A DNA stretch of 64,000 bases from Bacillota bacterium (GCA_050952625.1 JBMNLH010000001.1:960001-1024000), one strand, 5' to 3'; shown: positions 3,633-14,368, numbered from the stretch's first letter. The notes: generated by a model from the letters alone, not told the origin. Numbers and translations are program-made.

Positions 3633-4631
3633 TTATTCTCGACCATAAGCTTTAGGCAGCCGGCCACTGGTCACTGATTCGGCCCGTAATTGACGACCAA
3701 CGATCCGTTCGACCATTGCTCCCAGATCAAGGAGTTTATCAACGTCTATTCCGGTTTCGATGCCCATTCCATCCAGCATTACCACCAGGTCTTCGGTGCA
3801 GACGAGGCCGGTTCGGCTAGGATCGGAGTAATAGTACTTACCGGTTCCAGATACCGGAACTCCATCGATAAAGTTAGCCGGTTGGCCACCAATACCACCC
3901 AAAGTAGCGTCGAAACAGGCAATCCCTGCCTGCATTGCGGCTAAGACATTAGCCAAGCCCCAGCCTCGGGTAACGTGAAAGTGGGCAACGTGCCTTTCCG
4001 GATGCGGGTCACGGTCCAGGACCTTGGCGAAGTATTCATAAATCTTATCAGGACTGGCCTGACCATCATGGTCAGCGTGGCAGACATCGTCAACTCCCAT
4101 CTTTAACAGCCGGTCGGTAAAGTCTACTGCCCAGTCCATCGGGACCGGACCAGCAATTGGGCAGCCCCAGATGGTACTAACTGTAACTGAGAATTTAATC
4201 CCGGCATCGCGCGAAAGTTGCAACCACTTTTCGATATTGGCCCAGTGTTCGGTAATCGGCCTTCCCGCATTAACCAGGTTGTGAGCCTCACTCGTCGAGA
4301 TAGTCACTGAAATCCGGTCCGGGCCATATCCGGCTTCCTTATCTTTAATTGCGTCCATTACTGCTCGTTCAGTCATGGTTACGACGGTGTATTCCATTCC
4401 GGGAACCCGTTTGATTCGCTTCATCAGTTCATGGGCATCCTTGAATTGAGGCATCCGTTTGGGATTGCCAAAGTTTGATACCTCAATTTTTTTAAAACCG
4501 GCATCAACCAAGGCATCCAGAACATACATCTTGGCATCAGTGGGAATAAACTTCTCTTCGTGTTGGAAACCATCGCGGGCGGTGATGTCACAAACATGGA
4601 CAAACTTGGGCAGATTGGCAAATGGGTTCAT
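3633..4631 (-). CDS. Hydroxymethylglutaryl-CoA lyase-like protein (HMGL-like, DRE-TIM family)
   Basis: DITARDGFQHE active-site helix, HFH metal motif and DATLGGIGG. Confidence 0.85.
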   Translation of the reverse strand: MNPFANLPKFVHVCDITARDGFQHEEKFIPTDAKMYVLDALVDAGFKKIEVSNFGNPKRMPQFKDAHELMKRIKRVPGMEYTVVTMTERAVMDAIKDKEAGYGPDRISVTISTSEAHNLVNAGRPITEHWANIEKWLQLSRDAGIKFSVTVSTIWGCPIAGPVPMDWAVDFTDRLLKMGVDDVCHADHDGQASPDKIYEYFAKVLDRDPHPERHVAHFHVTRGWGLANVLAAMQAGIACFDATLGGIGGQPANFIDGVPVSGTGKYYYSDPSRTGLVCTEDLVVMLDGMGIETGIDVDKLLDLGAMVERIVGRQLRAESVTSGRLPKAYGRE

Positions 4632-4815
4632 GTAATTAAACTCGCTCCTTTCAAGCCTCTCGTGTAAAACTGATTAGGTTTGCGTTTTCCGGCTTATTGC
4701 TTACTGATTCTACAAATAAAGCACTTTTTCCTGCTAGCGGATAGGAAGAGTTGTCAAAGAAGATTGAAAAATCAAGCGGGTAAAACACAGGTATCAATTA
4801 GTTGTTAATTGCAAA

Positions 4816-4839
4816 TAACCCGCCTATACCGGCGGGTTA
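4816..4839 (-). terminator. Hairpin downstream of the sigK 3' half, probable sigK terminator
   Basis: TAACCCGCC-tatacc-GGCGGGTTA perfect 9-bp stem about 70 nt past the sigK stop. Confidence 0.6.
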
Positions 4840-4908
4840 AATTATGATTTAGCAGTAAGGGCAATTCAGTTTTATAATATAATGGACCGAATATTATCAA
4901 ACGAATAA

Positions 4909-5202
4909 TTATGGTTTGTATTTATTGGATGGGGAATCCATTGACAGTTCGCGCATCAGTTTTTGAATGGCTCGCTTCTCAATCCGACTAACATAACTCC
5001 TGGAGATTCCTAACATCCTAGCTATTTCTCGCTGGGTTTTTCGAAAACTGTTAAACAATCCAAAACGTAAGACTAGGACGTTTCTTTCGCGTGGGGATAG
5101 TCGTTTGACTCTTTCACGTAATCGGTCTTCCTCAAAACGTCCCTCTACTGTCTCTTGAACTATCTCCGGTTCAGTGCCTAGAACATCTAGCAGGGTGATT
5201 TC
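4909..5202 (-). CDS. sigK: sigK 3' half (spoIIIC-like; sigma regions 3-4), no start codon of its own
   Basis: Manual minus-strand translation: EITLLDVLGTEPEIVQETVEGRFEEDRLRERVKRLSPRERNVLVLRFGLFNSFRKTQREIARMLGISRSYVSRIEKRAIQKLMRELSMDSPSNKYKP*. It contains the sigma-K region 4 HTH TQREIA..LGISRSYVSRIEK. Not in the ORF track. Confidence 0.95.
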   Translation of the reverse strand, partial: EITLLDVLGTEPEIVQETVEGRFEEDRLRERVKRLSPRERNVLVLRFGLFNSFRKTQREIARMLGISRSYVSRIEKRAIQKLMRELSMDSPSNKYKP

Positions 5203-5226
5203 GTTAACCTCTCCATGTTATCTATT
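5178..5226 (-). other. Left recombination site (attR-like hybrid: P arm plus sigK B' arm); core GA at 5202-5201
   Basis: Minus strand reads ATAGATAAC-ATGGAGAGG-TTAAC-[GA]-AATCACCCTGCTAGAT; its P arm is the inverted mirror of the P' arm at 9648-9670. Confidence 0.85.
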
Positions 5227-5247
5227 GTATTAACCCGAGACAAAAGA

Positions 5248-5510
5248 CTACTTTTTATAAATGTCTCCGCGTGGCCCGATGACCTCAATAATTATTAATT
5301 GATCTTCAATTATAAGGTCATAAATAATCCGTATGTCGCCAATGCGACCCCTGTACTTCTGATTAAAGCCCCGTAACTGCTTAATATTTGTCCGCTGAGG
5401 GGATCAACGGAAATGGCTTCAATTGCAGCCGCAATACGTTTTTGGGTAGCCCTATCAACACGTTTAAGATAGTTGCGAGGCTGAGCTAACAGCTTGACCT
5501 CATAGGTCAA
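5248..5510 (-). pseudogene. RelE/ParE-family toxin, frameshifted near 5390
   Basis: A TTG start overlaps the antitoxin stop. MTYEVKLLAQPRNYLKRVDRATQKRIAAAIEAISVDPLSG continues in another frame as NIKQLRGFNQKYRGRIGDIRIIYDLIIEDQLIIIEVIGPRGDIYKK*, a typical RelE C-terminus. Confidence 0.8.
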
Positions 5511-5877
5511 GTTCTCGTTTGAGCTCATCCCAGCTAACGCCACCTTTCCGACGTTGTTCCTTACTCAAGGCTGCTATTTCATTTTCTGGCCAATCTAAGT
5601 AAATAGTATCTTGGCAGGAAGGGCAGATGAATTCATCATGCCAGGTTTTAGTTTCATCCGTGTTTGGATTATCCAGTAGATCAGCTAACACTAGGGGTGT
5701 GCTGCATGTGGTACAAAACGGGTCAATGTAGAAGGGGCTGCTCCCAGGCCGTGGTATGACCGCACTTTCTGGTTGTACCCTTTCTACTAGTTTTTCAAGA
5801 TACTTTTTGGCTCTCTCTATGTTTTGCTCCGGAAGCCTAGCAACTAGGCGGTAAAGCTCTTCCTTGGGTAAGCTCAT
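5500..5877 (-). CDS. Putative antitoxin with inserted CxxC...CxxC zinc ribbon
   Basis: Upstream of and overlapping relE; N-terminal KEELYRLVARLPE and C-terminal SWDELKRELDL are typical of small RelE partners; central CTTC and CPSC motifs. Confidence 0.65.
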   Translation of the reverse strand: MSLPKEELYRLVARLPEQNIERAKKYLEKLVERVQPESAVIPRPGSSPFYIDPFCTTCSTPLVLADLLDNPNTDETKTWHDEFICPSCQDTIYLDWPENEIAALSKEQRRKGGVSWDELKRELDL

Positions 5878-6026
5878 TAAAAATCATCCCTTCTGCTTTT
5901 CCCATTTTTTCTACCTTTCCCACAGTACTTTAGGTAGTTTTACCCCCTTCAACAATTAATCCAGTCTCTGGAGAGTAGCGTACATAATTATATTACCAAT
6001 TAGTTACTATAACTGTAAATTATAAT

Positions 6027-7598
6027 TCATATTAATAGATAAACATTAAGCGTAAAGTTATCAAGCCTTGCGCTTTTTTCTTTATAATACACGGCTTTAT
6101 CTACGATAGTTTTAAGTAGTGTATTTTTCTTTACTACATCGTCGGTGGCTTGGTAAGCGTCCAGGACATGCCGAATGGTCGGGATGATCTGCTGGTGGGT
6201 GCGCTCCCGTTCCTCAATTTCATTTATTTCATCCTGAACCTGTTGCAGAGACTTGCTCGCGGCCTCGATCCTCTCAGTAACAATCTTATTGCGTTCAAGG
6301 TAGGTGGGTATATCATAGACACCCTGTTCCAGAAGGTCCTGGAGGCGTGACTTTTGCTTTTGCAGTTCCTCTAGCTGCCTGGTCAAGTTCTCGATAACCG
6401 AATTAGGTATAAGCGGTTCAGCCGTGGCCGCTATCTCCCGGGCCAGTTGCTCCTGGTTCAGTTCTAAGTTTGCTAACTCTTCCTCCAAGGTTTGCAACAA
6501 CCTTTTTTCAACAAAACTGAAAAGGGACGATTTGTTGTCACATCCTGCATGGATGCATTTACACATATTAGATTTGTGTCCGGACTTTTGTTTATTGGAT
6601 TGTAAAACCATTCGGCGTCCGCATTTGCCACAAACGATCAGACCGGCTAAAGGATTTTTAGGTTTCGTCTTTGTGCGCACAACAGTATTTTTTTTAAGGT
6701 TGTTTTGTGCAGCATAAAAAATATCCTTCTCGATTAAAGGTTCATGCTTCCCTTCTACATCAATCCACTGCTCCCTGGGACGAGCATAACCTATTTTACG
6801 GGATCGATCCCGATATTTCTTTTTCCACTGAATTCGTCCGATATAAACCTCATTGCTAAGTATAAAACGAACAACAGAAGGTTCCCAAACACCTCCTCTA
6901 ACCGGGCTTTTAACCTTCATTTCATTTAATCGATTAGCAATTCTAGTACTGCCAATAGGGTTGCCATCGTTACCATTAACGTACCAGTTATAAATTAGAC
7001 GAACAATTTCAGCATCTTTATTGGGGATCAGGACCTTATCAGGCCCTCGATCGTAGCCAAAAGGGGGACGGGTCCCGATATACTTCCCGTCCTTAACCGC
7101 CATTACCCGACCCCGTTGAAGACGCTTGTTGATAATCTTCAGTTCCCGTCTAGCCATGAAAGCCTCGAATTCGCTCCATTCTTCATCGAGCTCATCATCC
7201 AAGTCATACACCTTCCGAGGGGTAATGATGAGGGTAGAGGAGGCTTTAAACGCCGCCAGAATGGTCCCCTGATCAATCATGTCGCCCCGTCCAAGCCGGT
7301 CCAGATCCATGCATAGGACCGCATCATATTCACCCGCTTCAACTTCATGGAGGAGGCGTTGCATTTCTGGACGGTCTGATATATGTTCGCCACTAACAAT
7401 TTCTTCGAAAATGGATACTACGTTAAGACGGTTGCGCTGGGCCAGTTCGGTAAGAGCTTTGCGATGCTTAGATAAAGTATCACCTTCACCCCGAGATTCA
7501 GCTTCAAAATCTGCCCGGGATTTACGAAGATACATGGCTACTTTATTAAGATCACGAGGAAAATCGGCTGGCAAGATAAACACCCCTGACGATAACAT
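6027..7598 (-). CDS. Large serine recombinase (SpoIVCA-like role predicted)
   Basis: YLRKS catalytic motif, RPEMQRLL, DLDRLGR, recombinase domain (PFGY, YIGRIQW), zinc ribbon LAGLIVCGKCG...CKC...C, then a coiled coil; 523 aa. Confidence 0.95.
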   Translation of the reverse strand: MLSSGVFILPADFPRDLNKVAMYLRKSRADFEAESRGEGDTLSKHRKALTELAQRNRLNVVSIFEEIVSGEHISDRPEMQRLLHEVEAGEYDAVLCMDLDRLGRGDMIDQGTILAAFKASSTLIITPRKVYDLDDELDEEWSEFEAFMARRELKIINKRLQRGRVMAVKDGKYIGTRPPFGYDRGPDKVLIPNKDAEIVRLIYNWYVNGNDGNPIGSTRIANRLNEMKVKSPVRGGVWEPSVVRFILSNEVYIGRIQWKKKYRDRSRKIGYARPREQWIDVEGKHEPLIEKDIFYAAQNNLKKNTVVRTKTKPKNPLAGLIVCGKCGRRMVLQSNKQKSGHKSNMCKCIHAGCDNKSSLFSFVEKRLLQTLEEELANLELNQEQLAREIAATAEPLIPNSVIENLTRQLEELQKQKSRLQDLLEQGVYDIPTYLERNKIVTERIEAASKSLQQVQDEINEIEERERTHQQIIPTIRHVLDAYQATDDVVKKNTLLKTIVDKAVYYKEKSARLDNFTLNVYLLI

Positions 7599-7641
7599 CT
7601 TTATCTATTGTTATTCGTCGAGGAGAGGGGAATTCCTGCAG

Positions 7642-7836
7642 TTACTTCCTTAACTCCAAGCGTAGCTGAATCAGTACCAACCGCAATTTCCCCATAAGTC
7701 TAATCAATTCCTCCCATAAGCGAAACTGGGTCAACGGGGAGCCAGTAAATGTTTGCTCGTTTGATAACCACCTGGCCAGCCCGAGTGTTCTTTCGACACG
7801 TGGATCGCTAGGTAAAACATCAGTCCTTTTCATCAT
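7642..7836 (-). CDS. Small hypothetical ORF immediately upstream of the recombinase
   Basis: 64-aa ORF with an AAGGA RBS, co-oriented with the recombinase; no recognisable motif. Confidence 0.35.
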   Translation of the reverse strand: MMKRTDVLPSDPRVERTLGLARWLSNEQTFTGSPLTQFRLWEELIRLMGKLRLVLIQLRLELRK

Positions 7837-8027
7837 AAATTCCTTGAATCCCTAGTAAATAGATTGGAAGTAGAATGTTAGGTTAATTACTAAACTTTAA
7901 TCGATCTCAAATTAGAAGTGCCTATATAAATATAAAAACCTGTCTTTTTATTATCCACAGGTTTTCAGTCGTATATCTATTTAATTTATCTAATCCTGTT
8001 AATTTCTGAATGTTTAATGACATTTTC

Positions 8028-8160
8028 TCACGCTGCCTTATTCACAAGAGCTAGGGCCTTTATCAACTTTTTTCGGTCCCATAATTCAATGTTAGAGTTT
8101 TTGGCTTCTTTCTGAGCCTGTTCAGATAAGCGAGTCTTAATGTTTTTTTCGTTTTCTTGT
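8028..8160 (-). pseudogene. Possible remnant of an Mrr-like endonuclease C-terminus
   Basis: Startless frame TRLSEQAQKEAKNSNIELWDRKKLIKAL resembles the A...A....VELWDR..L end of Mrr_cat domains. Confidence 0.35.
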
Positions 8161-8180
8161 CAGTCAAGAGAAATCGTGTA

Positions 8181-8372
8181 TTACTTTAACCGCTTAAGAA
8201 TAACGACTTCCTCTTCCTGGGTGGATAAGCGTTTGTCAATTCTTTTGATATCTTCCCAAACGTAACGGAGTTCATTTTTTATTGACGTTACATCTGCTTG
8301 GAGTAACTTTTGGCCTTCGGCCAATGTCTGGAGTTGTTGTAGTACAAGCTCCTGGAATTTCCCGTTATCCAT
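8181..8372 (-). CDS. Small coiled-coil hypothetical protein (true start probably MDNGKFQELVLQQL)
   Basis: AAGGAG RBS before the ATG at 8372; heptad pattern. Confidence 0.6.
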   Translation of the reverse strand: MDNGKFQELVLQQLQTLAEGQKLLQADVTSIKNELRYVWEDIKRIDKRLSTQEEEVVILKRLK

Positions 8373-8411
8373 AGCAATCTCCTTTCTGGTGCCCGATACG
8401 GATCTCAATTT

Positions 8412-8470
8412 AACGCGGCCAAGGAGATAATCGGGCGATACATTAAAAAAGTCAGCAATAACTAAACATA
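8412..8470 (-). pseudogene. Relic of an XRE-family HTH repressor (last two helices)
   Basis: LVIADFFNVSPDYLLGR matches the characteristic IADFFNVSLDYLLGR end of HTH_3 domains; the N-terminal helices are absent. Confidence 0.65.
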
Positions 8471-8644
8471 GCATCACCTTCCAGTTTATTATACTCACAT
8501 AATGTAAGTAAAACAACGCTCCTCACGTAAGTGAAAATAATTTGAATATGGGGCCCGACTGCTTTCGATCTGTGAGTATAATAACAAATAAAGTTGCTTA
8601 CTAAAAATATCCATGATTGGAGGTAATCACTTACAAAACACACG

Positions 8645-8674
8645 GTTTGTCCTTGACCGACAACTGCATAGATC
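8645..8674 (+). promoter_or_regulatory. SpoIIID-like box plus mother-cell (sigma-E-type) -10 upstream of a small ORF
   Basis: 8645-8654 reads AAGGACAAAC on the minus strand (WWRRACARNY consensus); CATAGAT at 8667. Confidence 0.5.
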
Positions 8675-8693
8675 AGTAGTGGGTGATGCCTTC

Positions 8694-8870
8694 ATGAAAC
8701 CGGAGATTAAGCTGGTCGGCGAAAAGAAAATAGAACGGACAACAATCCGCGTATTCCGTCCAGAGCTAAGTTTTGAAGAGCGAGAGTTTCGAATGAAGTT
8801 ACTGCACACTGCCGTTGCGGACTGCTATCGTTCGTCGACGAATCGGGTAGAGGGTAGCGGCACTAGTTGA
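8694..8870 (+). CDS. 58-aa protein, candidate recombination directionality factor
   Basis: MKPEIKLVGEKKIERTTIRVFRPELSFEEREFRMKLLHTAVADC...; GGGTGA RBS; lies inside the element; SpoIIID-like box upstream. Function is inferred. Confidence 0.55.
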   Translation: MKPEIKLVGEKKIERTTIRVFRPELSFEEREFRMKLLHTAVADCYRSSTNRVEGSGTS

Positions 8871-9145
8871 GGAGTACAAGATAGGTTGTACTAAGATAAG
8901 AATTTACGAATTAAATTTTATGCATCACTAATGTAGCCTGATTATCTTCTTCAGTACCGACACTTGGCCGGCTCCGAAACTATCAAAAAACCAATTACTC
9001 CCCCTAGAATCAAACTAATAATTGTGTTCTCAATCACGTTTAAACACCCTCTCTTTTTGATTTCACCTTATAAGCCCATCCGGAATAAACTGTAATTAAA
9101 CGCCAGGGTTTTTTCTCCAATTGATTTCCACATTTATCCTTCGAT

Positions 9146-9183
9146 TTGGACAGGCACTAGTTTACGATAACAACCATATTATG
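9146..9183 (+). promoter_or_regulatory. sigK promoter with SpoIIID-like box and sigma-E/K-type -10
   Basis: TTGGACAGGC (9146-9155) fits WWRRACARNY; CACT-N16-CATATTAT with the -10 at 9175. Confidence 0.6.
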
Positions 9184-9216
9184 TAGAGCAAGCTCCGCTT
9201 CAAAGGGGGATTAAAT

Positions 9217-9647
9217 GTGTACCTGGATCTTACGACACCCTGGTTATCCTTTTGTTTTCCTGGATTGCTCCTTTTAGTTGGATATATCACTAATCAAACT
9301 TTCCCGCATCCACTGTCCGAAGATCAAGAAACATCATGCCTTCGACGTTTTCGCAATGGCGATGAGGAGGCTAGAAATTTACTTATTGAACATAATCTTC
9401 GGCTCGTCGCGCATATTTTAAAAAAATTTGATGGAACTGGCGAAGATACCGATGATCTTATTTCTATTGGAACCATTGGATTGATTAAAGCAATCAACAC
9501 CTTCGATCCAGATAAAGGTGCTAAACTAGCCACTTATGCTGCCCGTTGCATCGAAAACGAGATCCTAATGCATTTACGAGCATCACGGAAAAATAAAGGT
9601 GAGGTATCCCTATACGATCCTATTGGCACGGATAAAGAAGGTAATGA
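9217..9647 (+). CDS. sigK: sigK 5' half (spoIVCB-like; pro-sequence plus regions 1.2-3); ORF runs on to a stop at 9726 in non-sigK sequence
   Basis: Hydrophobic pro-sequence then [57 protein letters not shown] and [16 protein letters not shown]; similarity to sigma-K ends right after this. Confidence 0.95.
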
Positions 9648-9670
9648 GTTAAGCTTGCTAAGTTATCTAT
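9622..9670 (+). other. Right recombination site (attL-like hybrid: sigK B arm plus P' arm); core GA at 9646-9647
   Basis: GATAAAGAAGGTAAT-[GA]-GTTAA-GCTTGCTAA-GTTATCTAT; GTTAA and GTTATCTAT mirror TTAAC and ATAGATAAC of the left site at identical distances from the core. Confidence 0.85.
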
Positions 9671-10119
9671 CAATTTACTGTGGTCAAAAAGTCCCAGGCC
9701 AGCGGGCACAGGAGCGTTTTTCATAGTAAGGCCAGTGCAATTTGTAAGTATTAACTAATTATAGCTTAACTTATTAAATTTAACTGTTTTTAATTTATTG
9801 CTAATATATCCAATAATACCTTTCCCCTGATTTGTCACACGGAATGAAAAAAGTCTCAAGCCTCCAGGTGTTATACGGACGTGCCAAGAAAACAATAGTT
9901 TTTCTCCGTCGATTCCGGTAAACGTATGCTCGTCTTTAAAACGAATTATTGTTTCTGGGCTTTCTGGAGTAAACTTACTTGAAAATTGACTAGGGTCAAA
10001 TTTTCCAGGTTGCCATCTAGTAAATTATTTGTTTAACTCATCTAATTAAAAAGTTTAATGCAACACTAATAATCAGGCTAACGAAAGATTCTTAAACTCA
10101 ACTGGAATCTATGGTTGAC

Positions 10120-10148
10120 TTGAGGCAATGTTTGGATGATGTTATAAT
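10120..10148 (+). promoter_or_regulatory. sigma-A-type promoter of the yqeG-aroE unit
   Basis: TTGAGG-N17-TATAAT with an extended TG. Confidence 0.5.
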
Positions 10149-10162
10149 GATAAACGAATTGC

Positions 10163-10693
10163 ATGGAGGGTATCGTTTTGAAGAAGAAAATCATCCAGTT
10201 GCTGAGACCGAAGCTTTTTGTCAGATCAATAACGGATGTTACTCCGGACATCCTTGATTCTTTTCAGGTTAAAGGGATTATCATAGACCTGGATAATACC
10301 CTTACTCCATGGCAAAGCGAGTTTTTAGCCCCAGATAATATTCGTTGGCTCAATACTATTAAGAGCCACGGTTTTCAAGTCTGTCTAGTTAGTAATAATA
10401 AGGGCGAAAGAATAAAGAAGATTGCCAGCATCTTGGATATTCCTTTTGTGGCCAAGGCCTCTAAACCCCGGCGACGGGCTTTCTTAAAGGGAATGAAAGC
10501 CATTGGGACTAAGCCTCAAGAAACAGCAGTAATTGGCGATCAGGTTTTTACTGATGTTTTAGGCGGAAACAGACTTGGGCTATGCACGATACTCGTCGAC
10601 CCTTTAAGTTCATATGAATTTGTTGGGACCCGTTTAATGCGGATTCCCGAGCGAGCGGTGCTAAACCTAATTCGGAGGCCGAATAAGTTATGA
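10163..10693 (+). CDS. yqeG: YqeG family HAD IIIA phosphatase
   Basis: DLDNTL, VSNN, KP and IGDQVFTDVLGGNRLG motifs. Confidence 0.92.
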   Translation: MEGIVLKKKIIQLLRPKLFVRSITDVTPDILDSFQVKGIIIDLDNTLTPWQSEFLAPDNIRWLNTIKSHGFQVCLVSNNKGERIKKIASILDIPFVAKASKPRRRAFLKGMKAIGTKPQETAVIGDQVFTDVLGGNRLGLCTILVDPLSSYEFVGTRLMRIPERAVLNLIRRPNKL

Positions 10694-11562
10694 GCAAAAG
10701 GAAAGAAATAACTGGTGTGACTGAAATATTTGGGGTGATGGGCTATCCGGTAGCCCATTCGCTATCTCCGGCCATACAAAATAAGGCATTTGATTATTAT
10801 GAATTAGATAAGATTTATTTGGCTTTTGCTGTACCCCCCAACTGCCTGACTCAAGCCTTGAATGGTTTAAGGGCTTTAGGCGTAATCGGGGTTAATGTCA
10901 CCTTGCCCTATAAAGAGGCTGTAGCCAGACAGGTCGATCTCCTTTCTCCAGAGGCCCAATTGATTGGGGCGGTAAATGTCTTGCGTTTTGACCAGGATCG
11001 TTTGGTTGGTCATAATACCGACGGTACCGGATTTCTGCAGTCACTTGAACAAGATGCTGGCTTTACGCCTGCCGGAAAAAAGGTTCTGGTTCTAGGGGCT
11101 GGCGGAGCAGCGAGAGCAGTTACTTTGACCCTGGCTCGATTTGGGGCGGCGCATATAAGCATAGCCAATCGAACTCGAAAACGGGCTACGGAACTGGCGA
11201 CAGAAGTTGAGGCAAGAACTGGCCTAAAAGCAGTGGGGCTAAGCTTAGAACCAAGTGAACTGAAACCCTGGGTTCCCGAGGCGGATTTGGTGATTCAAGC
11301 TACCTCGGTTGGTTTATACCCAAAGGGTGAATCGCCAAGTTGGTTTAATCCGGATTGGCTATCGCCAACTGCGTTAGTCTGCGATCTCATTTATCGGCCT
11401 CGACCCTCTGAGTTTTTAAAGAGGGCTGCTTTAAGAGGATGTCGTACCTTAGACGGGTTAGGCATGCTCTTATATCAAGGGGCGCAATCTTTCACCTGGT
11501 GGACGGGTTTGGAAGCACCGGTCGACGTAATGCGGCAGTCATTGTTAAAACAGCTTGGCTGA
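10690..11562 (+). CDS. aroE: Shikimate dehydrogenase
   Basis: HSLSP, NVTLPYK, GAVN, NTDG, GAGGAARA and DGLGMLLYQG motifs. Confidence 0.95.
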   Translation: MSKRKEITGVTEIFGVMGYPVAHSLSPAIQNKAFDYYELDKIYLAFAVPPNCLTQALNGLRALGVIGVNVTLPYKEAVARQVDLLSPEAQLIGAVNVLRFDQDRLVGHNTDGTGFLQSLEQDAGFTPAGKKVLVLGAGGAARAVTLTLARFGAAHISIANRTRKRATELATEVEARTGLKAVGLSLEPSELKPWVPEADLVIQATSVGLYPKGESPSWFNPDWLSPTALVCDLIYRPRPSEFLKRAALRGCRTLDGLGMLLYQGAQSFTWWTGLEAPVDVMRQSLLKQLG

Positions 11563-11667: not shown

Positions 11668-11737
11668 AATAACACATTCGTTATCGTTTGTGTTGTTTTC
11701 ATAAAGTGGTTGTGCTCAGATAGGTATGAGTGGTTTA
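11668..11737 (-). repeat. Dispersed repeat family A, degenerate copy
   Basis: Minus strand reads TAAACCACTCATACCTATCTGAGCACAACCACTTTATGAAAACAACACAAAC. Confidence 0.6.
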
Positions 11738-11863
11738 TCTGAATCCGGAAAGCTTAATACAGATAGTGTTAAATTAGGCAGCAAATGCATGAAAATAAAC
11801 TAATTGGCTATTGTTAACAGGCGATTGGTCAATTTATCTTGGGAAAGAAGAGGTGGGGCCTAG

Positions 11864-12337
11864 ATTGCTAATCAAGGTTCAATTAAACATGTAGCTGGGT
11901 TTACCCTGGTTGAGCTATTAGCAGTATTGGTGGTTCTTGGAATGGTTTCTCTAATGGCTTGGCCGGTGTTTAATCGGACATTGGCTAACCACCAACTCAG
12001 GCAAACTGCTGAGCAAATGGCTTGGGAATTACGAGCGCAGCAGCAAGAAGCCATTGCTTTTGGTTCCTCACGCCAAATTGAGTTTTCCCTTTACGGTAAT
12101 TACTATAATGTGTTAAAACCAGAACTTCGGCGAGTTTACCTGCCCGAAAAAATCCGTTTTCATTATATAACCATCCCTAAAACGGGAGGGAACCGCTATT
12201 TGTTAGATTTTGACATTCTCGGTCGACCTAATCTTGGGGGGACGATTGCTTTGAAAAACGAATTTGGTTCGGAGCAATATGTAATCATCACACCGGTAAT
12301 CGGTCGAATCAGAATCTCCGATAAACCGCCGGAGTGA
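11864..12337 (+). CDS. Prepilin-like protein (GspH/FimT/ComGD-like), probable ATT start
   Basis: Frame upstream of the tracked ORF reads IANQGSIKHVAG|FTLVELLAVL (class III signal); GAGGTG RBS 8 nt before the ATT; in-frame stop at 11861. Confidence 0.75.
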   Translation: MANQGSIKHVAGFTLVELLAVLVVLGMVSLMAWPVFNRTLANHQLRQTAEQMAWELRAQQQEAIAFGSSRQIEFSLYGNYYNVLKPELRRVYLPEKIRFHYITIPKTGGNRYLLDFDILGRPNLGGTIALKNEFGSEQYVIITPVIGRIRISDKPPE

Positions 12338-12541
12338 GGTCCACTCTAATAGTAACTATCCTCGTGTTTGAACTCGTCAGCAGGCAGATTGGGAACGAAA
12401 ATAAATGATGCAAATCGTCAATCACGGACCTTCGTTATTACACGGCGCAGTCAGGGGTTTTCCTGTTCGGATGGTGTTGCCAAGTAATATGGGGGTCTAC
12501 TTAAATAATTTGACATAAAACTTTTATGGTGGTGTGACGTA

Positions 12542-13774
12542 ATGAGTACTTTACGATATCTAACAGCCGGAGAATCCCATGGACCGGCCTTGACTGCTAT
12601 CCTGGAAGGCGTACCCGCGGGTCTATTTTTGTTAACCGAGGCAATTAACCGTGATTTGATCCGACGTCAGGGAGGTTATGGCCGAGGAGGACGAATGAAG
12701 ATCGAGCGTGATCGAGTTACCCTGCTTTCAGGGGTCCGGGGAGGAGTGACCCTGGGGAGCCCGATTAGCCTGCTTATTCAAAACCGTGATTGGGAAAACT
12801 GGTCAACCATAATGGGGCCAGGACCAGAAGCAAATACTAATGAACGGAAAGTAACCCGACCACGGCCTGGTCATGCAGATTTGGGAGGGGCGTTAAAATA
12901 TCGCCATCAAGATCTGCGAAATGTTCTGGAACGAGCCAGTGCGCGAGAAACCGCGGCCCGGGTGGCCGTAGGATCAATCGCCCGAACCATCCTGGAGCAG
13001 CTAGGAGTTACAGTTATGGCGTGGGTTGAACAAATCGGTCCGGTCCGGTCAACTGAAGCCTCCCGGGAGGTTTTTGAGCAATGGCTTACCGAAGGGTCCA
13101 ACTTCTCTGGTCCAACGGACCAATCATTTCTCCAAAGTTGGCGGCAGAGAATCGAGAAATCACCAGTTTACTGCCCGGATGTGGAAGCTTCCCGGAAAAT
13201 GGTCGAAGCGATTGATTCTGCCCGAGAAGAGGGAGACACACTCGGGGGAATTTTTGTGATCACTGCCTGGGGTTTACCTTCTGGGCTGGGCAGTTATGTC
13301 CATTGGGATCGTCGGTTAGATGGCCGTTTAGCCGGTGCCGTGATGAGTATTCCCGGCATTAAGGGAGTGGAGATCGGGCAAGGGTTTGAAGTGGCTCAAG
13401 AACGAGGCTCAAAAGCTCACGATGAGATATTTTATTCTTCCCAAGCCGGCATTTACCGGGAGACTAATCGAGCTGGCGGGTTGGAGGGAGGCGTCACTAA
13501 CGGACAGCCGCTGGTAGTCAGAGCAGCGATGAAACCAATTCCGACCCTGATTAATCCATTGCGCAGCGTGGACCTCGAAACGCGAGAGGCGGTCTTCGCA
13601 GCAGTGGAACGGTCGGATGTTTGTGCTGTGCCGGCCGTGAGCGTTGTTGGTGAGGCTGCAGTCGCTTTTGTTTTAGCCCAAGCGGTGTTGGAAAGATTTT
13701 CAGGAGATACGATGGAGGAGCTCCAAAAGGACTGGGCAGATTACTTTGATTACCTCCGGAAAGTGAGGCAATAG
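12542..13774 (+). CDS. aroC: Chorismate synthase
   Basis: [21 protein letters not shown] and RSDVCAVP motifs. Confidence 0.97.
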
Positions 13775-13777
13775 TTA

Positions 13778-14368
13778 TTGAAGACCAATATAACCTTGAT
13801 CGGCTTTATGGGAACCGGCAAAACAGCGGTGGGGCGAAGTCTGGCCTCTCTAGTAGAAAAAGACTTTGTGGATACTGATGCCGAAATAGAGAAAGTGGTT
13901 GGCCTAAAAGTTGAAGAGATTTTTTCCCGCTTCGGCGAGGTGCGTTTTCGTTCCGAAGAGTCACTGATAATCAAGAAGGTAGCTGCACGGCAAAACTGTG
14001 TCATCTCGACTGGCGGGGGAGCAGTTTTAAACAAAGTCAATTGGGAGGCCTTGAGGGCCTCTTCTTATATCGTGTGTCTGGTTGCTTCCCCGGAAGTAAT
14101 TCAATCTAGAGTAGCCCGTCGAGTTCGTCCCTTGCTCCGCAAGGATCGTTCACTAGACCGAATACAAGAACTGTTAAAAGAAAGGGAACCCTTTTACCAG
14201 GGAGCAGATTTGTACATCGATACCTCTGAGGTCAGTTGCCAGGAAGTGGCGCAACAAATCTATGACTGGTGGAACAAACAGGAAAAAATGCAAGGGAGCT
14301 CGGTAAAGACATCCAGTAAGAACATAGATGATAAGATTATTATGGAAAAGGCGCGAAACGAACTCTAG
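13778..14368 (+). CDS. aroK: Shikimate kinase
   Basis: GFMGTGKT P-loop, DTD, STGGG and RPLL. Confidence 0.95.
   Translation: MKTNITLIGFMGTGKTAVGRSLASLVEKDFVDTDAEIEKVVGLKVEEIFSRFGEVRFRSEESLIIKKVAARQNCVISTGGGAVLNKVNWEALRASSYIVCLVASPEVIQSRVARRVRPLLRKDRSLDRIQELLKEREPFYQGADLYIDTSEVSCQEVAQQIYDWWNKQEKMQGSSVKTSSKNIDDKIIMEKARNEL

Follow-up and report, generated by a model that had tools for sequence, protein, structure and literature searches.

We analyzed a 64,000-nucleotide stretch of DNA from a Bacillota bacterium (GCA_050952625.1, JBMNLH010000001.1:960001-1024000), called the window here, with positions counted from its first letter. At positions 4,909 to 9,670 lies sigK, which encodes sigma-K, a sigma factor of late sporulation, in the form of two oppositely oriented halves with the DNA of a serine-recombinase cassette between them. 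Because the halves point in opposite ways, sigK can be rebuilt only by flipping 4.4 kb and not by excision. The locus is probably a sigK-interrupting system of a large serine recombinase (LSR) with inverted hybrid attachment (att) sites, switched during development by inversion; the switching during sporulation is inferred, as no ON-form DNA was seen.

A sigK Gene in Two Opposed Halves

The two halves and the region upstream of the first are as follows, with identities to the locus in G001, a genome of the same genus.

9217-9647, plus strand: sigK 5' half, with the pro-sequence and region 2, up to GNE; its last two bases are the GA core; 95% identical to G001
5200-4909, minus strand: sigK 3' half, from ITLLDVLG to the stop, with sigma-70 region 4; 96% identical to G001 residues 144-239
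8943-9216, plus strand: native sigK upstream region, collinear with G001

Pfam finds Sigma70_r2 on the plus-strand open reading frame (ORF) that starts at 9217 and Sigma70_r4 (PF04545, 2.3e-16) on the minus-strand frame 5214-4909. The break falls after codon 143, between GNE and ITL, within a glutamate codon whose first two bases are GA. In the intact 239-aa sigK of G001, DKEGNE and ITLLDVLG are contiguous, and the gene reads ..DKEGNEITLQDVLG.. across the break position, with 95-96% identity to the halves in the window; this uninterrupted gene supplies the attB sequence. An earlier note on this DNA, made from the sequence alone, had proposed a split sigK that inversion would put back in frame, and the contiguity of these residues in G001 agrees with it.

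When scored against TIGR02846, the NCBIfam model for sigma-K (curated cut-off 298.65 bits), the 5' half reaches 232.2 bits (model positions 12-149) and the 3' half 108.8 bits (positions 138-226); each half alone is below the cut-off, and the simple sum of both is above it. Elsewhere in the 2.9-Mb genome of the window there is no intact sigK and no gene above this cut-off, the next-best gene, read as sigE, scoring 257.3 bits. Within its own genome the 5' half has one full match, which is itself, and its weaker matches are other sporulation sigma genes. Family searches against a curated cut-off will overlook split genes of this kind. In a six-frame search, the B. subtilis control, too, stayed below the TIGR02846 cut-off, which the interruption of its sigK by the skin element would presumably explain.

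Hybrid Sites and a Large Serine Recombinase

The following features lie at the two breaks and between them.

5178-5225, minus strand: left recombination site, an attR-type hybrid, with B' half 5178-5200, core TC/GA 5201-5202, and P-type arm 5203-5225
9624-9670, plus strand: right recombination site, an attL-type hybrid, with B half, core GA 9646-9647, and P-type arm 9648-9670
6027-7598, minus strand: LSR, 523 aa, with Resolvase, Recombinase, and Zn_ribbon_recom domains; phrog_95 integrase, 1.6e-112

On the plus strand, the left site runs from the B' half through TC at 5201-5202 into the arm GTTAACCTCTCCATGTTATCTAT at 5203-5225, and the right site runs from the B half through GA at 9646-9647 into the arm GTTAAGCTTGCTAAGTTATCTAT at 9648-9670. 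Read in the sense of sigK, both cores are GA. The two arms are direct repeats on the plus strand, detected by a repeat finder with a start-to-start distance of 4445, and they are identical at 18/23 positions, including the first five and the last nine bases. The binomial probability of at least 18/23 matches at predetermined positions is 1.6e-7, and pairs of 23-mers drawn at random from the window reach 18 matches at a rate of 2e-5. All sequences quoted in the earlier note are present where it had placed them. Its description of the sites as inverted attL and attR holds for the composite sites, each made of gene half, core, and arm, but not for the arms alone, which are direct repeats. With GA at the dyad center of the two 23-nt arms, the attP predicted after a flip is symmetric and 48 bp long.

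The gene at 6027-7598, which the earlier note had taken for the recombinase, does encode the domains of an LSR: the catalytic domain (PF00239, 2.2e-18), the Recombinase domain (PF07508, 6.1e-22), and the zinc ribbon (PF13408), the last a narrow pass at 26.1 bits against a cut-off of 25.3. Ser27 lies inside a YLRKSR block and is invariant in 40 homologues. The closest solved homologue is the SPbeta integrase YokA/SprA (4e-53, aligned over residues 17-502), and homology to SprA points to a coiled-coil insertion in the second DNA-binding domain (DBD2). Classical phase-variation switches have a small invertase or a tyrosine recombinase and identical inverted repeats. Here, the enzyme is a 523-aa LSR, and the hybrid sites share only the core and 18/23 positions of one arm.

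Related Elements and the Crossover Point

Four related elements interrupt sigK at the same codon and with the same GA core. The LSR of L043, from a metagenome-assembled genome (Thermoanaerobacterales bacterium 50_218), is 67% identical to that of the window, and its element measures 2.3 kb; L052/G193 has identical statistics and is evidently the same sequence. The LSR of L050 (genome G278) is 65% identical, in an element of 2.4 kb. G102 has an LSR of 45% identity in an element of 43 kb, with GA at both junctions. L045, a metagenome contig that also appears as L114 among viral contigs, has an LSR of 71% identity and only the N-side junction of sigK. The P-type arms match those of the window at 12-19/23 positions in L043, L050, and L045 and at 8-11/23 in G102. 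The order arm, LSR, small ORF, arm is common to the window cassette and its relatives.

The junctions of these elements help to locate the crossover. In all four relatives, the 5' half ends in ..GGTAA(C/T), followed by GA and then by an arm beginning with GTT. At the 3' junctions (L043, L050, and G102), GA and the sigK 3' half come after an arm that ends in ..AAC (L043 and L050) or ..AAT (G102). The base after GA (+1) differs between the junctions in 4/4 elements for which both were read (the window, L043, L050, and G102), and the base before GA (-1) differs in the window and L050. Because of these mismatches, GA is the sole dinucleotide shared on the dyad axis of the arms. Crossover at GA, as the earlier note had it, is therefore supported by comparison with elements at the same codon.

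The distance of a GATAA motif from the core is 15 nt in both P arms of the window, and in the arms of L043, L050, and L045, but 10 nt in the sigK 5' half-site (B half). By reading of the sequence, no clear motif is present in the B' (3') half-site. For serine integrases, the DBD2 motif of attB is described as shifted 5 bp inward relative to attP in the cited part of PMC11722253, and the offset of 10 versus 15 nt seen here therefore fits that description.

The geometry of the window is not that of its relatives. In 3/3 relatives with both halves located (L043/G193, L050/G278, and G102), the sigK halves are on one strand, and these elements would therefore be excisable. The halves are likewise on one strand in G003, G030, and G025, where sigK has unrelated interruptions near codon 115. 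Among 41 genomes compared, only the genome of the window has its sigK halves on opposite strands; in two of the 41 (G004 and G034), the halves are on different contigs. A wider sigK search covered 401 genomes, 292 of them with a match; among the 150 matches listed out of 293, the truncated frames reaching residue 142 in G102, G278, and G193 have direct geometry. A further candidate for a split sigK, in G297, was rejected as an intact gene running off its contig.

The arms can also be matched individually. The arm at 5203-5225, on the 3' side of the LSR, agrees with the LSR-proximal arm of L045 at 19/23 positions and the other arm at 14/23. In the relatives, it is the sigK 5' half to which this LSR-proximal arm is joined; in the window, it is the 3' half.

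The survey gave several observations on sigK itself. Interruption is common in this group, with a split sigK in 6/41 genomes (G000, G003, G004, G025, G030, and G034). The elements L053 (G003) and L054 (G030) are minimal, at 1.8-2.5 kb, and carry another LSR (22-26% identical) near codon 115 in direct geometry. In L045, sigK is interrupted at least twice, with residues 16-67 at 14378-14223 and residues 65-143 at 9797-9561; between these pieces lie two metabolic-looking genes (11717-14014) and another LSR, unrelated to the first (9775-11310, 25% identical), after which comes the LSR element of this study. In other families (L043, L050, and L053), sigK lies upstream of yqeG in the same direction. 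In this genus (G001 and the flipped window), the two genes are divergent, and sigK adjoins an HMG-CoA-lyase-like gene, which marks an earlier rearrangement of the locus.

A Small ORF Divergent from the Recombinase

The cassette carries a small ORF preceded by a conserved block.

8694-8870, plus strand: 58-aa ORF, candidate recombination directionality factor (RDF), from synteny with LSRs and a modelled complex
8644-8675, plus strand: conserved non-coding block upstream of the small ORF, promoter-like, from a comparison by eye of the window, L043, L050, and L045

The earlier note had held that the direction of the reaction must be controlled, and this ORF supplies a conserved candidate for that role. 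Homologues of the ORF are present in L043/L052, L050, and L045, always divergent from the LSR, and in the relatives of 2.3-2.4 kb, the small ORF and the LSR are almost the sole genes. No homologue was found in the 20 kb of G102 sequence examined. A profile search with the small ORF returned 96 clusters at E<=1e-3, nearly all of 45-95 aa; the top match, a 963-aa protein with 14 stretches, was set aside as repetitive. The family has no match in Pfam, PHROG, or PDB sequences, and its profile shows no sequence match to the SPbeta RDF (SprB). Naming by Atlas features was not accepted either, the ORF falling among unnamed clusters (best 0.87, below the lead level of 0.9) and a TnpW-containing cluster scoring 0.75, a level often due to chance.

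Synteny links the family to LSRs more widely. An LSR lies 1.0-4.6 kb upstream on the opposite strand in 41/54 viral-contig loci with a member of the family, a raw count that includes several near-duplicates among the 54. Among the 13 loci without an LSR, the upstream DNA available is shorter than 2.8 kb in 11; in the other 2, 6 kb of it contains no LSR. If the candidate role is correct, it would provide a likely function for about 96 clusters of small unannotated proteins that adjoin LSRs.

We modelled LSR residues 300-523 together with the 58-aa ORF and obtained complex scores of 0.77, 0.78, and 0.77, with the best control at 0.01. In a benchmark, the mark used was reached by 58/80 solved complexes and 2/110 mismatched pairs, counts that apply only roughly here because custom alignments were supplied for both partners. 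Contact agreement between runs is at least 88%, and the per-residue model confidence (pLDDT) of the partner is at least 76. The modelled contacts on the LSR are at residues 362-374 (just after the zinc ribbon), 467-498, and 512-523 (the last 12 residues), and those on the ORF involve a strand (residues 13-23) and a helix (30-47). The model thus supports binding of the small ORF to the LSR.

We also weighed a 64-aa ORF at 7642-7836, immediately upstream of the LSR gene, as a possible RDF and dismissed it, as it has no counterpart in L043, L050, or L045. A 21-nt direct repeat (17/21) links 8859-8879, at the 3' end of the small ORF, with 9153-9173, in the sigK promoter region. The promoter region is conserved in G001. 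The repeat may be due to chance or mark a site for a common regulator.

A Cassette Bounded by Insertion Sequence Ends

In comparison with G001, the extra DNA of the window consists of 5203-8933 plus 9648-10071. At the two ends of this DNA, 24-26 nt agree with the termini of an insertion sequence (IS) of which the genome of the window contains several copies. This resident IS, of the IS4 family, is 1.6 kb long and encodes a 418-aa transposase (PF01609 and PF14294), and in 4/4 full copies examined, the end sequences agree and the target is duplicated over 9 bp. The features that bound the cassette are as follows.

8910-8933, plus strand: IS right-end terminal repeat, end only, no transposase; matches the resident IS4-family IS
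8934-8942, plus strand: 9-bp target-site duplication, copy 1, TAGCCTGAT, with 3 further identical bases after it
10046-10071, minus strand: IS left-end terminal repeat, end only, from the same resident IS
10072-10080, minus strand: 9-bp target-site duplication, copy 2, the reverse complement of copy 1
9671-10045, no strand assigned: cassette DNA with an ORF remnant on the minus strand; unique in the genome except for its last 23 nt

G001 has a single, unoccupied copy of the 9-bp target, with 2/9 bases different. The segment resembles a mobile insertion cassette, having both IS ends, a matching 9-bp duplication, and no DDE gene between the ends.

The orientation of these features is what makes the cassette informative. 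The 9-bp duplication is inverted in the window and becomes direct only after flipping 5201-9647. On the plus strand, both cassette termini resemble right ends, which rules out a simple insertion as the source of the present arrangement. After the flip, the extra DNA is a normal 4.16-kb insertion in the yqeG-sigK spacer that runs from left end to right end within a direct 9-bp duplication, and the gene order is otherwise that of G001, with yqeG and sigK divergent and the HMG-lyase-like gene following sigK. The flipped state being a normal insertion, the cassette must contain one of the breakpoints, and the second must fall past the sigK promoter in DNA that is not part of the cassette; from the split gene and the arms, we place them at the two GA sites. 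The segment so defined contains the LSR, the 58-aa ORF, the sigK promoter, and the sigK 5' half. Read in this way, the inverted 9-bp duplication shows, independently of the att sites, that an inversion between these sites took place in the past. The past action of a site-specific recombinase is thereby legible from a single genome through IS ends and a target duplication, which is a rare case. The proposal in the earlier note that the sequenced state has hybrid attL/attR-type inverted sites, and that a flip would give an in-frame sigK and a symmetric attP, thus finds support in the relatives, in G001, and in the target duplication.

The same structure could have another origin, in which the IS transposase and not the LSR made the inversion. 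The LSR may have integrated a circle with abutted IS ends into sigK, after which intramolecular transposition into the sigK-yqeG spacer inverted the segment with the promoter and 5' half. Worked by hand, this route ends in exactly what is seen today, with the 9-bp duplication inverted. It takes more steps than a simple insertion followed by an unaided LSR reaction, and the circle it calls for, in which the IS ends abut, would be an uncommon intermediate for cut-and-paste elements of the IS4 family. We regard it as the less likely account of how the locus arose; it concerns the origin only.

The IS itself appears to be mobile at present. In another strain, represented in metagenome run X8, a resident IS copy lies at position 7979, within the cassette between the LSR and the small ORF, and the IS4-family IS is therefore active in the population. 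Elsewhere (G000 C3:121452-127564, locus L065), three 1.6-kb IS copies lie within 6 kb beside an ISL3-type transposase fragment, forming an IS hotspot.

The Arrangement in Metagenomes

Twenty entries from 19 studies carry the stretch or part of it, and one of them may be the source of the genome itself. At least half of the sampled words of 4600-10400 are contained in 18 DNA runs, and the matching runs are all digester, bioreactor, or fermenter metagenomes from 2016-2025. Contigs bridge the left site in X4 (4600-6078), X12 (4931-5359), and X15 (4872-5263) and the right site in X4 (6052-10076), X15 (9534-9954), and X8 (9340-10018). The IS-end junction at 8933 is bridged in X4, X8, and X15 and that at 10071 in X15 and X12. 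These bridging contigs, from four runs of four studies, have 0-5 differences from the window, and the OFF arrangement is common to strains with differing flanks.

Inverted halves could in principle result from a mis-join at short repeats, and the genome is apparently metagenome-assembled (9 contigs, with a digester metagenome run as a possible source). The repeats are just 23-26 nt long, however, and contigs from four other runs bridge both att sites and both IS-end junctions. As these independent contigs span the junctions, the arrangement is not an assembly artefact, a possibility to which we assign practically no weight.

The contigs also bear on a second alternative, namely heritable phase variation, in which the segment would flip in growing cells and give sporulation-competent and -incompetent subpopulations. 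Both products of a flip remain on the chromosome, and the switch is reversible in principle: LSR alone should take ON to OFF, and LSR with the factor should take OFF to ON. All site-bridging contigs in the four runs are nevertheless OFF, whereas a common ON subpopulation should leave alternative contigs or breaks, and the known related systems are described as mother-cell-specific in the cited parts of PMC5025042 and PMC6957869. Phase variation thus seems very improbable.

Two sets of records that might have been taken for rearranged forms were rejected. Three contigs of X4 have loose ends at 9648 (agreement 0.69) and continue into sigK-like sequence unlike the window's own 3' half; we read them as the uninterrupted sigK of other species on a conserved stretch (depth 30, bin 9450-9643). 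A joint-like record in X8 (10046-10068, GTG, 7979-8336) is not a rearrangement of the switch but the IS copy at 7979 in the other strain.

Proposed History and Function

We propose that sigK was still intact when a cassette consisting of IS end, attP, LSR, small ORF, and IS end transposed into the yqeG-sigK spacer. The LSR would then have recombined attP with an attB inside sigK, 0.7 kb away, in the reaction that integrases perform unaided, and because the sites were inverted, this reaction would have flipped the segment and split sigK (OFF). In the mother cell, the small ORF may act as an RDF, binding the LSR at the base of the coiled coil and at the C-terminal strand and thereby permitting attL x attR recombination. 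The flip back would restore the reading frame of the pro-sigma-K gene (ON) and create a symmetric attP of 48 bp, and the germ line would stay OFF because the mother cell is terminal. Since nothing is excised, the element cannot be lost, and directionality falls wholly on the factor: with both products in cis, an unaided integrase would undo the ON state, which the factor alone must maintain. We put at roughly 55% the probability that the locus is such a natural, non-excisable integrase/RDF toggle, in which an IS-carried cassette beside its own attB captured sigK by inversion and flips back specifically in the mother cell. If this is true, sigK would be the first sporulation gene found to be rebuilt by inversion, and the locus would illustrate a route to permanent fixation of a mobile element that is unable to leave.

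Several points count against this proposal. Relative to the cassette, the core reads the other way round from the cores of all four relatives. Because of the flipped polarity, the reaction in cis is an inversion and not a deletion of the sigK 5' half; for the same reason, a derivation by hand of the window from a relative-like canonical insertion through one inversion or one LSR step fails. The RDF role of the 58-aa ORF is that of a candidate, drawn from synteny and a model, and the complex score may partly reflect likeness, as the LSR is homologous to the integrase of the solved SPbeta integrase-RDF complex 9dxd. Comparison of the block upstream of the small ORF with the genome's own spoIIID, spoIVA, bofA, and sigK upstream regions revealed no clear common motif. 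The contigs of X4, X8, X15, and X12 contain no ON-form joint, an absence that is weak evidence because Logan contigs drop rare variants. Finally, the YabG family was not found in the genome.

The last two points also speak for a dead end, in which an attP x attB inversion in cis broke sigK permanently and served no developmental role, sporulation being incomplete or the event too recent. The decay of cassette genes fits this view, as does the origin of all known records of the organism in digester and bioreactor metagenomes, where spores may be unneeded. On the other side, the LSR, the small ORF and its upstream block, both cores, and all four half-sites are intact beside toxin-like and helix-turn-helix (HTH) neighbors that are broken, and the genome retains intact SpoIIID, SpoIVA, and BofA, the last a dedicated regulator of pro-sigma-K processing. 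Relative to G001, the ratio of nonsynonymous to synonymous substitution rates (dN/dS) is 0.066 in the N half of sigK and 0.065 in the C half (~0.07 in both), comparable to neighboring genes, although these values span the entire divergence from G001 and not just the time after the split, which tempers their weight for a maintained sigK. The arrangement is shared by strains with different flanks in runs from 2016 to 2025, and the LSR-interrupted sigK cases described in the cited parts of PMC5025042 and PMC6957869 are all working switches. We consider a dead end the less likely reading.

Other Genes of the Cassette

Three further genes or remnants lie in the cassette.

5243-5545, minus strand: RelE/ParE-like toxin gene, frameshifted near 5400, from three-frame translation
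5500-5877, minus strand: 125-aa ORF with two CxxC pairs; only sub-threshold matches
8181-8516, minus strand: remnant of an XRE-type HTH gene, C-terminal part only, from reading of the sequence; no Pfam match

The RelE/ParE-like name comes from a reading of two frames and should be taken as provisional; the 77-aa piece of this toxin-like gene has no match in Pfam. The 125-aa ORF upstream of it is possibly the antitoxin. Between the HTH remnant and the small ORF, a 23-nt inverted repeat (8486-8508 and 8562-8584, 83% complementary, 53 nt apart) has the appearance of an operator.

Comparison with Known Systems

The closest analogue in function is the skin element of B. subtilis, in which sigK is rebuilt only in the mother cell by the LSR SpoIVCA with the 64-aa RDF Skr, as described in the cited part of PMC6957869. 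Both systems have an LSR on DNA that interrupts sigK and a decayed mobile element in the germ line, and the 58-aa candidate would correspond to the small RDF that sets the timing in skin. The skin element, a defective prophage of 42-48 kb, leaves as a circle by recombination between direct sites (PMC6957869), whereas here the sites are inverted and there is no excision. Unlike skin, the element is a 4.2-kb cassette bounded by IS ends that in the ON state would lie beside sigK and not inside it. The cassette interrupts a mother-cell-specific gene and has its own LSR, as skin does, but lacks direct attL and attR; because its sites are inverted and nothing is excised, we consider it a variant that would work like skin and not a member of that class.

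In skinCd of C. difficile, according to the cited part of PMC5025042, the LSR CD1231 is constitutive and the 72-aa RDF CD1234 is mother-cell-specific and without database similarity; the skinCd site in sigK is described there as different from the skinBs site. CD1231 alone inverted the DNA between attB and an inverted attP on an E. coli test plasmid (PMC5025042), and the OFF-forming reaction proposed here is therefore within the repertoire of such enzymes. For skinCd, which is naturally excised, that inversion was an engineered assay. The elements L043, L050, G102, and L045 share with the window the attB codon (after GNE) and the GA core, but their sigK halves are on one strand in the three in which both were located. 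The gin element in gerE of Bacillus cereus ATCC 10987 is a minimal, non-prophage LSR element in a mother-cell gene (PMC5595907, cited part); it resembles the 2.3-2.4 kb relatives L043 and L050 but is excised and occupies another gene.

Developmental inversion has a precedent outside the spore formers. In Calothrix sp. NIES-4101, heterocyst-specific inversions restore nif genes (PMC11249958), and the likeness extends to gene parts on opposite strands, serine recombinases, inverted repeats, and a terminally differentiated cell. That case is from a cyanobacterium and combines many elements, and the cited part of the paper describes no RDF or attP/attB logic and mentions sigK solely as a case of excision. 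The published rearrangements of sporulation genes that we found (sigK, spsM, gerE, kamA, and others) are all excisions. In the full-text literature searched, which excludes supplements and most subscription journals, no sporulation gene is rebuilt by inversion, and the only natural developmental inversions are those of the heterocyst nif genes of one Calothrix strain.

SPbeta, whose SprA with the RDF SprB is solved (9dxd and 9dxh), provides the closest solved LSR homologue but is an active, excising phage. A switch of the inversion type keeps its element on the chromosome for good, and daughter cells could in principle inherit its state. The parts of the module are compact and fully specified, comprising a 523-aa LSR, a 58-aa candidate RDF, a 48-bp attP, and attB, attL, and attR with a GA core, and they could serve as an orthogonal inversion module. 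In engineered inversion memories, a state is set by the integrase on its own and reset, again by inversion between att sites, when the RDF is added. Those devices are synthetic; the system described here would be their natural counterpart.

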